Below are positions 125-6,755 of a stretch of 12,160 nucleotides of DNA, piece by piece. Source of the stretch: a virus. Taxonomy: Duplodnaviria > Heunggongvirae > Uroviricota > Caudoviricetes. The notes under the pieces are model-generated. The model did no database searches. It saw nothing but the letters and a program-made list of their open reading frames with translations, and was not told where the DNA came from. How positions within the stretch are numbered: position 1 is the stretch's first letter; each line of letters starts with the position of its first letter. Where the stretch lies: the IMG/VR virus record IMGVR_UViG_2609459803_000002, positions 1-12,160 of that record. One strand, given 5' to 3'. Made by a program: the position numbers and the translations under genes.

Positions 125-763
125 TTACACCCCTATAGCGATATAACGACCTAATACAGCGTTTGCAGCAGTCGCTATGCTTGAAAAACCGCGGAACTGA
201 TTTGATGTAATTGCAGAAGCCGACAGGATTCCTGCGCCTGAAGGTGTATGCCCCACATGACTAACTATCATTCCATAACATGCTGACGGAAAGGCAAAAG
301 GAAAATCGTTAAGATATCCGGCATCTTCACCACCAGACCCACCAAATCTCGCCTGCCCCCACTGAATAATCAGTGTTCTCCGGGAACCTGAAATAATTAA
401 CGGGATCGTTACATACCCATTCAGGCCAATGACACCAGATGCAGTGCCAGCCAGAGATAATTCTCCCAAACCAAGGTTTTCGAGAGCCGTTTTCACGGTG
501 CCATCCGATTTGATATCGCCAAACGGATTCTTGCGGCTTAACAGCAGCGCACGAAGCGCGGTAAGCAGCTGGTCGTGTTGCGCCTTCTCCAGACTAGCAC
601 CGGATGCCTCCACCACGCTGCAAAGCTCCTCCTGCAACATGTCAAAGTAGTCATCATCCAGATCGGTAGCAGGCGTGCCAGTCTGGGGGTTACCACGGGT
701 AAAACCGTTTTTACCCGCGCCGAACTTATCCTTCTGCGCGGTTTTCGTGTCTATACGATGCAT
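125..763 (-). CDS. Phage tail fiber protein, short (212 aa)
   Basis: ORF-track protein ([22 protein letters not shown]...) with Gly/Ser-rich C-terminal half, GGAG ribosome-binding site 6 nt upstream of the ATG, and a tightly coupled tfa-like gene immediately downstream. Family assignment is by context and recall, not by search. Confidence 0.55.
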
Positions 764-1574
764 GGATTACTCCGGATACCGAACCGTTGAGCATCTCGAT
801 AACTTCCCGCCGCTTGTCGTAGCACGGCCCCTCAATGTTGTACCCGGCGGTGGTGATGGCCCACATCAGTGGCTGACGTCGCGCGCCCATCCCGGTAAGC
901 ATCGTGGTATAAAGCGCATCGGTGGCGTGCTCGTGATATTCATCCACCACGGCACAGTGGGGTGATGAACCATCACCGGGGTTACCGATCAGCGGTTCAA
1001 ACCGCGCGCCATCCTCCGGACGGTTCATGTTTGAGGCGTTAACCTCAATCCCGAACGCTTCCGTCAGCATGGGTGTGCGTTTACACATCAGTCGCGCCGG
1101 GCGAAAGACTTCCCACGCCTGTTTCTCTGTCGTGGCACCGGAATACACTTCCGCGCCAAACTCGTTATCACAGGCAAAACAATACAGGGCAACACCGGCA
1201 GAGATTGCCGATTTGCCGTTCTTACGGGGGATTTCGGTATACACCTCCCTGAAGCGGCGCAGCCGGGAGCCTTTATTGACCCAGCCAAACGCACAGCAGA
1301 TCACAAAGAGCTGCCACGGTTCCAGCGTGATGGGCATCCTCTTGAATGCCCACTCCCCCTTGGTGTGTGGCAACAGCTGAATAAATTTCGCGGCCCGTTC
1401 AGCCAGGTCCTTGTCGAAGCGGTAACGAAACGACTTACTTTTTTCCGCCATCAGGTCATCAAGATGGCGCTGGCAGGCCTGAATCACAAACTGGCAGGCC
1501 ACAATCTTTCCGCGCACGACATCACGGGCATACTGATTGGCAGCATTTACGTTGGGGTAAGATTTCCGGCTCAT
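726..1574 (-). pseudogene. Large terminase subunit, N-terminal ATPase domain only (3'-truncated remnant of a roughly 550-aa HK97-type protein)
   Basis: Walker A-like IPRKNGKS and Walker B-like CAVVDEYHE motifs are present. The ORF stops at 282 aa, shortly after the ITTAG motif, with no nuclease domain in any frame; the next gene is the tail fiber. Start overlaps the TerS stop, as is typical. Confidence 0.75.
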
Positions 1575-2065
1575 GATTCGATGATTTTCAGAAACGGGTT
1601 AGTGGCTTTCTTCTGCCCCGCCAGGCCAATCAGACGCTGGCGGCTGCTGGGGTCGAGTCCGAGCATTGCCCCCGTGCTGCTCATCTCGGACTCCTGTTCT
1701 TTCTTGGCGGTCAGCTCCGGATTTTTGACCATGCCACCCATTGCACCGGTGATGGTGTTGCCCTGTCTGGCAATATTTTTCACGGCACGCCGCCAGAACT
1801 CGTAGGCCACGCACCACCGCTCAAGCACCGCGAGGTCAGTCACGCACAGCAGGCCCTGACCGCAGAGTTCTTTGGTTGTCAGTTGCCACATGATCGTGGC
1901 GAGAGGGAGATCTTCTTCAGCGAACCACTCCGGTGGCTCAACACCTTTGATGGGCGTAAAAACAGGTTCATCTTTATTCAGGGCTCGCTTGCCGGGGTTT
2001 CCGGCCAGCGCCTTGCGCGCCGTTGGCTTGGGGCGACGCCCGGACCCCCCCGCCGTTCCAGCCAT
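1571..2065 (-). CDS. Small terminase subunit, P27 family
   Basis: N-terminus [30 protein letters not shown] matches the recalled P27-family signature. Start chosen at ATG 2065..2063 (AGGAG 8 nt upstream) rather than the GTG at 2074 used by the ORF track. Confidence 0.8.
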
Positions 2066-2104
2066 ATGCGGCACTCCTGGTTAAATTTCATTTTTCGCGG
2101 GTAT

Positions 2105-2164
2105 AAAAAAACGATGGGGCGGGCAGTCCGGAAGACGTCAGGTCACAGGGATGTGACCCGCCCC
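2105..2164 (-). other. GC-rich nested inverted repeat between HNH and TerS: candidate cos/packaging site or intrinsic terminator
   Basis: GGGGCGGG (2116-2123) pairs with CCCGCCCC (2157-2164) and encloses the hairpin GTCACA-ggga-TGTGAC (2142-2157). A run of 7 A (2105-2111) gives a U-tract on the minus strand after the structure. Confidence 0.3.
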
Positions 2165-2190
2165 TCCCCTCAGACAGTTGAGAGTTATTA

Positions 2191-2541
2191 TCACTTTAAC
2201 CGTTCACGGACCGTCTTCGCCTTATGACACGGCCAACACAGACTCTGCAGATTACAGTCGGCATCAGTGCCGCCATGCGCTTTAGGGATGATGTGGTCAA
2301 CGGTTTTCGCCTCACGCACCACACCGGCACGCAGACATAACTGACATAAACCTTTGTCACGCTTCAGCACACGCGCGCGGATAGCGTCCCACTTCGAACC
2401 ATAACCGCGCTGATGACGGGACTGACCTGGCTTGTATTGCTTCCAGCCTTCGCTTTTGTGGCTTTCGCAGTAGCCTGACGGGTCTGTGGTTGTAGAGCGG
2501 CAGCCGCGAACACGGCAGGCTTTTGGGGTTCGTGGTGGCAT
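2191..2541 (-). CDS. HNH endonuclease (phage packaging-associated)
   Basis: Cys/His pattern CQLC...VDHIIP...GG...NLQSLCWPCH typical of HNH; GGAG ribosome-binding site 7 nt upstream of ATG 2541; located directly upstream of TerS as in HK97-like phages. Confidence 0.85.
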   Translation of the reverse strand: MPPRTPKACRVRGCRSTTTDPSGYCESHKSEGWKQYKPGQSRHQRGYGSKWDAIRARVLKRDKGLCQLCLRAGVVREAKTVDHIIPKAHGGTDADCNLQSLCWPCHKAKTVRERLK

Positions 2542-2559: not shown

Positions 2560-2585
2560 AAGCCACCATCGATTGCTAGTGGCTT
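2560..2585 (-). terminator. Terminator-like hairpin downstream of the orphan gene
   Basis: AAGCCAC (2560-2566) pairs with GTGGCTT (2579-2585) around a 12-nt loop; on the minus strand the stem is followed by a U-run. The stem is short, so strength is uncertain. Confidence 0.3.
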
Positions 2586-5175: not shown

Positions 5176-6171
5176 ATGTTTGAGCAGCGTAAAGCCCTGT
5201 ATGCGCAACTGGAACAAGCACGCAATTCAAAAGTATTATGCTATGTAACAGGTGATAGACCAAACCAAGAAGCTCAAATCAGCGCTGATGTATTCGATCT
5301 GTTCGTCAATCATCTTGATGTGATAGGTGATGTTCAAAAAATTAGCCTCGTGCTCTATACGCGAGGCGGCGACACTTTAACAGCATGGAGCCTTGTAAAC
5401 CTGCTTCGTCAGTTTTGTAAAGAACTCGAAATCATAATCCCATCAAAATGCCATAGTTCTGGGACGATAATGTGCCTTGGCGCGAACAACTTGGTTATGA
5501 CCAAGCAGGCAACCTTAGGGCCAATCGATCCAAGTGTGAATACACCACTTAACCCTTCGGCCATAATCAATGGGCAGCCACTTCAACTTCCAGTCAGTGT
5601 TGAAGAAATCAATGGCTATCTTGAAGTAGTTAAGCATGATTTGAGTATCAAAGATGATGCCTCACTTGCACAGATCCTCCTTGCATTAAGTGAAAAGGTT
5701 CATCCCTTGGTACTTGGAAAAGTCTATCGAGCTAAAGCGCAGATTCAAATGCTCGCAAGAAAACTACTGTCTCACCAACTCACTGATAGTGAAAGCATTG
5801 AGAAAATTGTAAGTTTCCTTTGTAGTGATTCTGGTAGCCATGACTACACTATAAATAGGATTGAAGCGGTAAACGATTTAGGTCTTACGGTGGAAAAACC
5901 AGATGAGCACCTTTACGGTCTGATCAAAGAAATTTATGAAGATTTCAAAACTGAGATGCATCTGGGTGAACCTTTTGACCCAAATGCTATCTTAGGAACA
6001 GTTAACCAGGCATCGTACGTATCTGTCAGAAGCATTTTAGAGGCTCCAGACACGTTTTCATATCAATTCCGCACTGAGGGGATGTTACAGCGTTTTCAAG
6101 TTCCAGGCGTCCCAGGTCAGTTCGGCATAAATCATAACCTTATCTCAGAGGGGTGGGCTCGACATGGATAA
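5176..6171 (+). CDS. ClpP/crotonase-fold serine peptidase (SppA / S49 / SDH-proteinase-like), cargo gene
   Basis: AAGGA ribosome-binding site 7 nt upstream of ATG 5176. Segment LVLYTRGGDTLTAWSLVNLL ... IIIPSKCHSSGTIMCLGANNLVMTKQATLGPIDP matches the GG ... (A/S)SxGT ... TLG.I core of ClpP/SppA-fold peptidases. Opposite strand to and AT-richer than the flanking phage genes. Confidence 0.7.
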   Translation: MFEQRKALYAQLEQARNSKVLCYVTGDRPNQEAQISADVFDLFVNHLDVIGDVQKISLVLYTRGGDTLTAWSLVNLLRQFCKELEIIIPSKCHSSGTIMCLGANNLVMTKQATLGPIDPSVNTPLNPSAIINGQPLQLPVSVEEINGYLEVVKHDLSIKDDASLAQILLALSEKVHPLVLGKVYRAKAQIQMLARKLLSHQLTDSESIEKIVSFLCSDSGSHDYTINRIEAVNDLGLTVEKPDEHLYGLIKEIYEDFKTEMHLGEPFDPNAILGTVNQASYVSVRSILEAPDTFSYQFRTEGMLQRFQVPGVPGQFGINHNLISEGWARHG

Positions 6172-6344: not shown

Positions 6345-6371
6345 AACAACGGCTCTCTAAGAGCCGTTGTT
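6345..6371. terminator. Bidirectional intrinsic terminator hairpin between the convergent Q and peptidase operons
   Basis: Perfect stem ACAACGGCTC (6346-6355) / GAGCCGTTGT (6361-6370), extendable by one A-T pair, with loop TCTAA. Followed by a U-run on the minus strand and a weaker U-rich tract on the plus strand. Confidence 0.5.
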
Positions 6372-6375
6372 GTAT

Positions 6376-6738
6376 CTATTCACATTCTAAACGTATATCG
6401 AGCATACTAAGGCAACCATCGATAAATCCCTCAGCCATCTGTATCTCAATGCGTATTAGTTTCTCATCCTTTTTACTAGCCTTGGCGAGCTTTCTTTTAG
6501 AGATACCGTATAGGTAATGGGCAACAAGAAGCGAATGTTCGTCCGGCCTTTTTTGCTTTAGACGAGCAAGACAACCTTCAATAATTAATGCATCACTATC
6601 TGAACAAGCCTGACGTGTTTTACTTGTATAGGGAAGAAGCCCTTTAAACCCAGCAGCTATAGGCGAATAATCTACTCCAGAACTATCACTCGCCGCCCAT
6701 GCTCCCCAACGCTCCAGAACCATCTGAATATCACGCAT
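6376..6738 (-). CDS. Late-gene antiterminator Q (phage 82 / QuuD-like family)
   Basis: N-terminus MRDIQMVLERWGAWAA and C-terminus GFIDGCLSMLDIRLE match the recalled QuuD-type signature. Start taken at ATG 6738 (GGAG 7 nt upstream) rather than the TTG at 6753. Position between the nin-like genes and the lysis cassette fits. Confidence 0.8.
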   Translation of the reverse strand: MRDIQMVLERWGAWAASDSSGVDYSPIAAGFKGLLPYTSKTRQACSDSDALIIEGCLARLKQKRPDEHSLLVAHYLYGISKRKLAKASKKDEKLIRIEIQMAEGFIDGCLSMLDIRLECE

Positions 6739-6755
6739 CAACTTTCTCCACAAAA

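Follow-up and report, generated by a model that had tools for sequence, protein, structure and literature searches.

The window analysed here, a 12,160-nucleotide stretch of viral DNA, is the right arm of a lambdoid prophage. Its first part carries genes for CI, Cro, a CII-like protein, RusA, a KilA-N protein, a DUF968 protein and Q. They are followed by a reverse-oriented protease of the SDH type, holin, endolysin, Rz, a gene of unknown function, an HNH endonuclease, the small terminase TerS, and a truncated large terminase, TerL. The last three genes are all encoded on the minus strand. A 116-nt gap separates the HNH gene from terS, and the probable cos element described below is in this gap, between HNH and terS/terL, as expected of a cos of the HK97/SfV type. 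Both HNH and TerS are of full length. The HNH protein of the window is 45% identical over 42 amino acids to gp74 of HK97, and 66% identical to the HNH protein of a phage with the type-3 cos described below. The coordinates of the features are listed in the Table.

Further elements are located outside the gap. A terminator-like hairpin, AAGCCACTAGCAATCGATGGTGGCTT followed by TTTTATT (2560-2585, minus strand), is positioned just upstream of the HNH start, between a phrog_8440 gene and HNH. A palindrome with a 12-bp stem, AACAACGGCTCT-CTA-AGAGCCGTTGTT (6345-6371), is located directly downstream of the Q antiterminator gene (6753..6376) and plausibly represents the tR'-type terminator in the late leader that Q acts upon. 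The open reading frame of the SDH-family, ClpP-like serine protease (331 amino acids, 5176-6171, plus strand) is placed between Q and the lysis cassette, opposite in direction to the late operon, and looks like a moron-type insertion.

The TerL of the window is devoid of the nuclease domain (the intact gene of SfV is orf2, 559-2292). The terL frame is interrupted after approximately 266 codons and continues into DNA resembling the tail-fibre genes ymfQ/gp53 (window ~726-790). Homology to TerL stops at ~778, and matches in Escherichia coli genomes break at 777/778. The two junction points are approximately 10 kb apart in intact relatives, indicating that the head genes and most of the tail genes have been deleted. 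The E. coli genome NZ_CP100530.1 has a similar junction of terL with tail-fibre DNA.

Table. Features of the probable cos element and of the flanking packaging genes, in window coordinates.
Feature	Position	Strand or reading	Evidence and remarks
Probable cos element, overall	~2170..2080	read on minus strand, from HNH to terS	
HNH endonuclease gene, 116 aa, packaging-associated, just upstream of cos	2191..2541	minus	PF01844, E 1e-14; phrog_144 HNH
Dyad TGATAATAACTCTCA	2179..2193	minus-strand sequence	12/14 relative to the 7-1-7 consensus TGAGAAT-N-ATTCTCA; overlaps HNH stop codon
G-block GGGGAGGGGCGGG	2157..2169	minus-strand sequence	conserved, fixed distance from the cut in 55 relatives and HK97
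TCACATC (family consensus TCAAATC)	2150..2156	minus-strand sequence	same motif at same offset in HK97
21-nt spacer, constant in length, variable in sequence	2129..2149		contains palindromes GACGTC and TCCGGA
GAC, directly 5' of overhang	2126..2128	minus-strand sequence	G(G/T)AC at constant offset in 52/57 loci
10-nt cohesive end	2116..2125	TGCCCGCCCC on minus, GGGGCGGGCA on plus	includes outer-repeat left arm 2116-2123; SfI run-off sequencing, record ends
ATCG then T7: variable 4-6 nt, then conserved T-run	2105..2115	minus-strand sequence	T81-T84 invariant or nearly invariant in alignment A2
ACCCGCGAAAAATGAAATTTAA, +14..+35, most conserved block; proposed TerS-binding site, cosB-like	2081..2102	minus-strand sequence	
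terS, P27-family small terminase (PF05119), 164 aa, intact	1571..2065	minus	
Truncated terL, 282 aa (577 aa in SfV), ATPase domain only	726..1574	minus	PF03354 only; fused at ~778 to tail-fibre DNA

The gap between HNH and terS contains two inverted repeats. The arms of the outer repeat, GGGGCGGG (2116-2123) and CCCGCCCC (2157-2164), are complementary at all eight positions and are separated by 33 nt. The inner repeat, formed by GGTCACA (2141-2147) and TGTGACC (2152-2158), pairs at seven of seven positions around a loop of 4 nt. A first-pass annotation of the window had reported an 8-bp GC stem enclosing a hairpin; both are present, and the 6-bp GTCACA/TGTGAC stem that it described is part of the 7-bp inner repeat. 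The two repeats overlap at positions 2157-2158, and therefore cannot both form completely at the same time. A shuffled window is expected to contain 7.6 ± 3.5 perfect inverted repeats of 8 bp whose arms are 3-40 nt apart, and only 0.03 with arms formed exclusively of G and C. In shuffles of the 116-nt intergenic region, P was 0.05 for the outer repeat, 0.05 for the 7-bp hairpin, and 0.014 for both. The folding energy of the region as RNA is -30 kcal/mol, compared to -26.2 ± 3.3 kcal/mol in shuffles (z = -1.15). The repeat is real, yet alone it is not strong evidence of function, and the argument against chance is modest. The evidence for function is provided by homology and not by the repeat itself.

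The sequence of the gap corresponds to the mapped genome end of a related phage. Run-off sequencing of the ends of SfI virion DNA demonstrated that 10 nt, 5'-TGCCCGCCCC-3', are absent relative to the prophage, and led to the conclusion that packaging is of the cos type, as in SfV (PMC3636060). The cos is identical in SfI, SfII, SfIV, and SfV (PMC3851460). The minus-strand sequence of the window at 2125..2116 is identical to the SfI cohesive end, which makes the plus-strand GGGGCGGGCA the actual cohesive end. Eight of its ten bases make up the left arm of the outer repeat. The first-pass annotation had likened the GGGGCGGGCAG run in this interval to the GC-rich cohesive end of lambda, and the remark was accurate, because the plus-strand run at 2116-2125 is the reverse complement of the cohesive end of SfI. 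The database record of SfI terminates with ...GGACTGCCCGCCCC (extended: ...CTTCCGGACTGCCCGCCCC) and begins with GTCGTTTTTTT (extended: GTCGTTTTTTTATACCCGCG), so that the break is exactly after the 10-mer. Over the site, the window differs from SfI at three of approximately 107 positions, one of which is inside the conserved TCAAATC motif; the overhang, GAC, and the whole terS-side block are identical. A literature search with the 10-mers of the overhang returned unrelated papers only.

Megablast comparison with phage records identified matches of 94-99% identity to SfV, SfI, SfII, SfIV, and several Escherichia and Salmonella phages. In window coordinates, the records of SfV and SfIV start at 2132, that of SfI at 2115, and that of SfII at 2190, all within the gap. 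The record of ST64B starts at 2080, just beyond the conserved block on the terS side. A point against the cos interpretation is that SfV and SfIV have record starts 7 nt further upstream than the overhang mapped in SfI. The run-off experiment with SfI resulted in a gap, instead of an overlap, between reads from both ends, which points to recessed 5' ends and hence to 3' overhangs. A 3' polarity of the SfI overhang would agree with the 10-nt 3' overhangs of HK97, where the cut is stimulated by HNH (PMC11331095, PMC9410871). The Figure 1 legend of the latter study gives 10-nt 3' overhangs for HK97, whereas its Discussion gives "12-nt 3'" for HK97 and "10-nt 5'" for lambda, apparently a swap of the two lengths.

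The same arrangement is found at the genome ends of HK97. The HK97 record ends with ...GGGCAGGGGGGGGGATCAAATCTTCAAAACCTTTGCCCCAAATGACCGCCGCCAAA and begins with GTTTGAATTTAACGCTAACCCGATTTTTTTAG, and the register at the junction is GAC|CGCCGCCAAA|. An nhmmer profile of P27-type sites gives an ungapped match to the end junction of HK97 (26.8 bits, E 5e-9). A profile constructed from distant clades only has a unique match in the window, at 2170..2080 (46 bits, E 5e-14), and also matches the HK97 genome-end junction in register (E 7e-7). Over the nhmmer profiles, the score of the HK97 junction is 20-27 bits. Since the G-run, TCAAATC, the 21-nt spacer, and GAC with the following 10 nt are in the same register, the cuts mapped in SfI and in HK97 coincide.

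These results indicate that the interval is very probably the cos site of a lambdoid prophage of the SfV/SfI type with an HK97-type terminase, composed of a P27-family TerS, TerL, and an accessory HNH endonuclease. The first-pass annotation had placed a candidate cos between HNH and terS; the identity to the SfI end and the in-register homology to the HK97 junction support that placement. It had proposed a comparison with the mapped ends of related cos phages, and the ends of both SfI and HK97 coincide with the site. The interval that it delimited, 2105-2164, covers the cut site, but leaves out the conserved block at 2102..2081 and part of the G-block (2165-2169). The cos site of the SfV/SfI phage family is already known, and the result for the present window is ordinary.

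The comparison was extended to the loci of TerS homologues, which were fetched from one genome per GTDB species and provided 55 distinct sites. They range from Escherichia to Xenorhabdus, Providencia, Gilliamella, Kosakonia, and Comamonadaceae, with TerS identities from 98% down to 47%. The 55 sites align almost without gaps and contain the same blocks at fixed spacing. Read on the minus strand, the G-block GGGGAGGGGCGGG is followed by TCAAATC(T/C)CT and a variable spacer of 21 nt, then by G(G/T)AC, a C-rich 10-mer, approximately six variable nucleotides, ATTTTTAT, and finally ACCCGCGAAAAATGAAATTTAA. In the last block, CCGCG and the A-tract are invariant as far as Comamonadaceae, the TerS proteins of which are 47-50% identical to that of the window. 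The distance of the ACCCGCGAAAAATGAAATTTAA block from the cut is fixed, whereas 30 to 101 nt separate it from the terS ATG, depending on the locus. The fixed spacing between blocks together with the variable distance to the start codon indicates that the blocks are features of a DNA site and not of the terS leader. At the level of sequence, the comparative data constitute a base-resolution map of the conserved parts of HK97-type cos sites. The map extends the structural work on HK97, which defined only the TerS site.

An additional set of 80 close IMG/VR relatives, with TerS at least 99% identical, was obtained from a TerS scan of viral contigs and served for allele frequencies only. Position 2153 of the window, inside TCAAATC, is C, whereas at least 90% of relatives have A in this column (the nearly invariant A37). 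The C allele is found in two IMG/VR viral contigs. Most of the 80 relatives have the sequence GGTCAAATC(C/T)CTG(T/C)(G/A)(A/G)CC, with uncompensated mismatches, and the inner hairpin is not kept. The perfect inner stem of the window is shared with only two other loci among the 80. A subgroup of the IMG/VR relatives breaks the outer repeat with GGGGGAGG.

The first-pass annotation had named the nested inverted repeat as a candidate cos site. The nested hairpin is not the functional signature, because neither helix is conserved or covarying among the 55 relatives, and few loci carry the allele with a perfect inner stem. When both helices are mapped onto the 55-sequence alignment, 59.7% of cells are paired, compared to 60.4% in column shuffles, and 424 of 500 shuffles pair as well as the real alignment. 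The inner helix is paired in 42% of cells. RNAalifold predicts zero conserved pairs in the same alignment, and Rfam has no match in 2075-2190, on which ground a known RNA family at the site was dropped. Palindromes are visible by eye in the 21-nt spacer of several lineages; nevertheless, a conserved spacer hairpin was also dropped, since the best stem in the spacer has a mean of 3.49, compared to 3.35 in shuffles, which is no enrichment. The perfect inner hairpin exists because of the rare A-to-C change at 2153 inside TCAAATC, and is an accident of one allele. The final eight nucleotides of the G-block are the right arm of the outer repeat (2157-2164), and the right-hand portion of the inner hairpin, in minus-strand orientation, is in the 21-nt spacer. 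The outer repeat is best interpreted as incidental to the presence of a C-rich overhang and a G-block upstream of it, each conserved in its own right.

Two explanations would nevertheless assign a function to the repeat. It could be a signal in itself, a two-fold symmetric element or cruciform recognised by a dimeric nuclease (TerL or HNH), with the G-block and the overhang as half-sites. Both arms do fall in conserved blocks, HK97, Klebsiella, and other clades retain a G-rich stretch upstream and a C-rich overhang, and 70.7% of the outer helix is pairable if G-U pairs are included. However, the complementarity is no higher than the composition of the blocks gives, as the column shuffles demonstrate, and covariation scores lower than the mean of the shuffles. 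Sites of a Citrobacter/Kluyvera-type subgroup have GGGGGAGG opposite CCCGCC(C/T)C, and HK97 has a plain G-run opposite CCGCCGCC. Furthermore, the centre of the repeat at ~2140 is 15-24 bp from the mapped nicks, and the cuts are therefore not symmetric about it. A symmetric signal is thus improbable; the functional symmetric repeat was rejected as a candidate for lack of covariation.

The gap could alternatively hold an intrinsic, Rho-independent terminator of the late operon, which the first-pass annotation had considered equally compatible with the sequence. In RNA transcribed from the minus strand, AUCG and U7 would come after the stem GGGGCGGG...CCCGCCCC. The site shares with terminators the GC-rich 8-bp stem and the downstream T-run on the transcribed strand, and the T-run is conserved in relatives. 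In contrast to a terminator, the stem encloses 33 nt, the T-run begins only 4 nt past it, and the stem is neither conserved nor covarying. A terminator scan did not call the site, the folding energy is ordinary (z = -1.15), and Rfam gave no match to it. TGACGTC, not a U-run, follows the inner hairpin, and a short-loop hairpin with a U-run within 0-2 nt is thus not found. The T-run is at a fixed distance from the cut and from the downstream block, which is the behaviour that a DNA site would be expected to show. The scan, the ordinary fold, and the lack of stem conservation do not support placing a terminator on a par with cos. Since pairing across the 55 relatives equals that of the shuffled controls and RNAalifold predicts no pairs, the terminator is rejected as highly improbable.

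Viral contigs were scanned for the pattern GGGNTCAAATC-N21-GACNGCC (matches L234-L353). The same left half of the site, extending from the G-block and TCAAATC through the 21-nt spacer and GAC to the 10-nt overhang, is joined to at least three kinds of right half: the HK97 type, the SfV/P27 type, and a third, Klebsiella type (TAACCTTTTTTCACACCGCCGCAGGTTAGAAAAC...). One contig (L299) combines an HK97-like left half with a right half of the third type. The occurrence of the left half with at least three unrelated right halves, and the mosaic contig, indicate that there is a mosaic joint at or near the cohesive end. The right-hand block changes with the type of TerS, whereas the left half persists with HNH and TerL. 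Between a type-3 phage and the window, HNH is 66% and TerL 40% identical, and TerS only 28%. The patterns of co-occurrence suggest that the two halves divide the labour, the right one being associated with TerS and the left one with HNH and TerL. The element composed of the G-block and TCAAATC resembles lambda cosQ by position. It may be, as a tentative proposal that has nearly as much for it as against it, that the cos of HNH-dependent terminases is modular, that its left half tracks HNH/TerL and not TerS, and that the G-block/TCAAATC element (-49..-35) is a hitherto unassigned, cosQ-like signal read by TerL/HNH or by the motor in the terminal cut.

About half of the sampled cos regions contain a 15-bp dyad of 7-1-7 form, TGAGAAT-N-ATTCTCA, at a distance of 31-43 nt on the upstream side of TCAAATC. 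Its best match has a mean of 9.5/14, compared to 7.4 ± 0.9 in shuffles. The dyad is found in both the P27-TerS and the HK97-TerS clades (L098, L110, L111, L137-L142, L232, and the HK97 junction), and is absent in the sampled cos regions of Xenorhabdus, Photorhabdus, Morganellaceae, Serratia, and Comamonadaceae. The dyad is similar to a Fur box, as illustrated by AATGATAATCATTATC in L098. Whether the dyad belongs to cos is uncertain.

A mechanism of cutting can be proposed by analogy with HK97. The TerS of HK97 binds at +15..+29, CTAACCCGATTTTTT, where an arginine contacts a C:G pair and an A-tract is required (PMC11331095). The numbering of the HK97 record fits the published TerS-DNA structure, with T16, the C:G pair at 21, and the A-tract at 23-31. 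In the window, the block with ACCCG and the A-tract at +14..+35 (2102..2081) is proposed as the TerS site. The ACCCG core is at +14..+18 in the window and at +18..+22 in HK97, and because of this difference in offset the binding of TerS to the block is an analogy only. A TerS ring with the HK97 TerS fold would lock onto the GC-core and A-tract block ~14-35 bp downstream of the cut. This placement would position TerL and HNH for two staggered nicks, predicted between 2116 and 2115 on the minus strand and between 2125 and 2126 on the plus strand. The product would have 10-nt overhangs, probably 3'-protruding, and packaging would then run toward terS, in the direction of lower window coordinates.

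An intact cognate TerL, containing both ATPase and nuclease domains, is not found beside the cos, which bears on use of the site by the prophage and not on the identity of the site. With the nuclease domain of the resident TerL missing and the head genes lost by deletion, the site would be usable only in trans. The prophage presumably cannot cut or package at its own cos, which may at best be a target for a related helper phage. An intact-looking cos with terS and HNH in a deletion prophage is thus a potential substrate for a co-resident phage of the SfV/SfI type, and cutting at the cos of the window by such a helper would start packaging into the adjacent chromosome. It is also conceivable that the site is a cos by descent but a dead relic, no longer under selection, which not even a helper could cleave because of the A-to-C change in TCAAATC or of other changes. 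The missing TerL nuclease domain and head and tail genes agree with this scenario, as does the deviation at one nearly invariant column, and the C in place of the near-invariant A could weaken the site. On the other hand, all invariant columns of the 55-sequence alignment are intact in the window, the overhang, GAC, and the entire terS-side block have the SfI sequence, HNH and TerS are full-length, and one of the two viral contigs with the same C allele (L048) is 38 kb long. A dead relic is therefore unlikely.

The cos of lambda (cosQ - cosN - cosB) has a 12-nt 5' overhang and is cut without HNH by a terminase with a Nu1-type TerS, for which there are IHF sites. The window site resembles it in the staggered, site-specific cut, in the GC-rich cohesive end, in the TerS-binding region proposed on the side of the terminase genes, and in a conserved element at the far side, which occupies the place of cosQ. 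It differs in the P27-family TerS (PF05119), the adjacent HNH gene, and the 10-nt overhang that is probably 3'. A lambda-type cos (Nu1/gpA, 12-nt 5' overhang) was ruled out by the PF05119 TerS and the adjacent HNH gene. The similarity to the cos of HK97 is closer: the G-run, TCAAATC, the 21-nt spacer, GAC, and the C-rich 10-nt overhang share exactly the same register, both HNH and TerL have homologues in HK97, the fold of TerS is common to both, and a GC-core with an A/T-tract (ACCCG...) is located downstream, as in the TerS site of HK97. In contrast, the TerS of the window has no detectable sequence similarity to gp1 of HK97, the downstream block differs in sequence and is 4 bp nearer to the cut, and the HNH gene, which is 270 bp upstream of the G-run in HK97, is immediately adjacent in the window. 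The closest counterparts are the cos sites of SfI, SfV, SfII, and SfIV, which have the same position between HNH and terS, the same cohesive end TGCCCGCCCC, and the same terS-side flank; TerS is ~98-99% and the DNA over the region 96-99% identical. The copy in the window differs from that of SfI in the three substitutions, including the one in TCAAATC, and from all four in being part of a deletion derivative without functional TerL or head genes.
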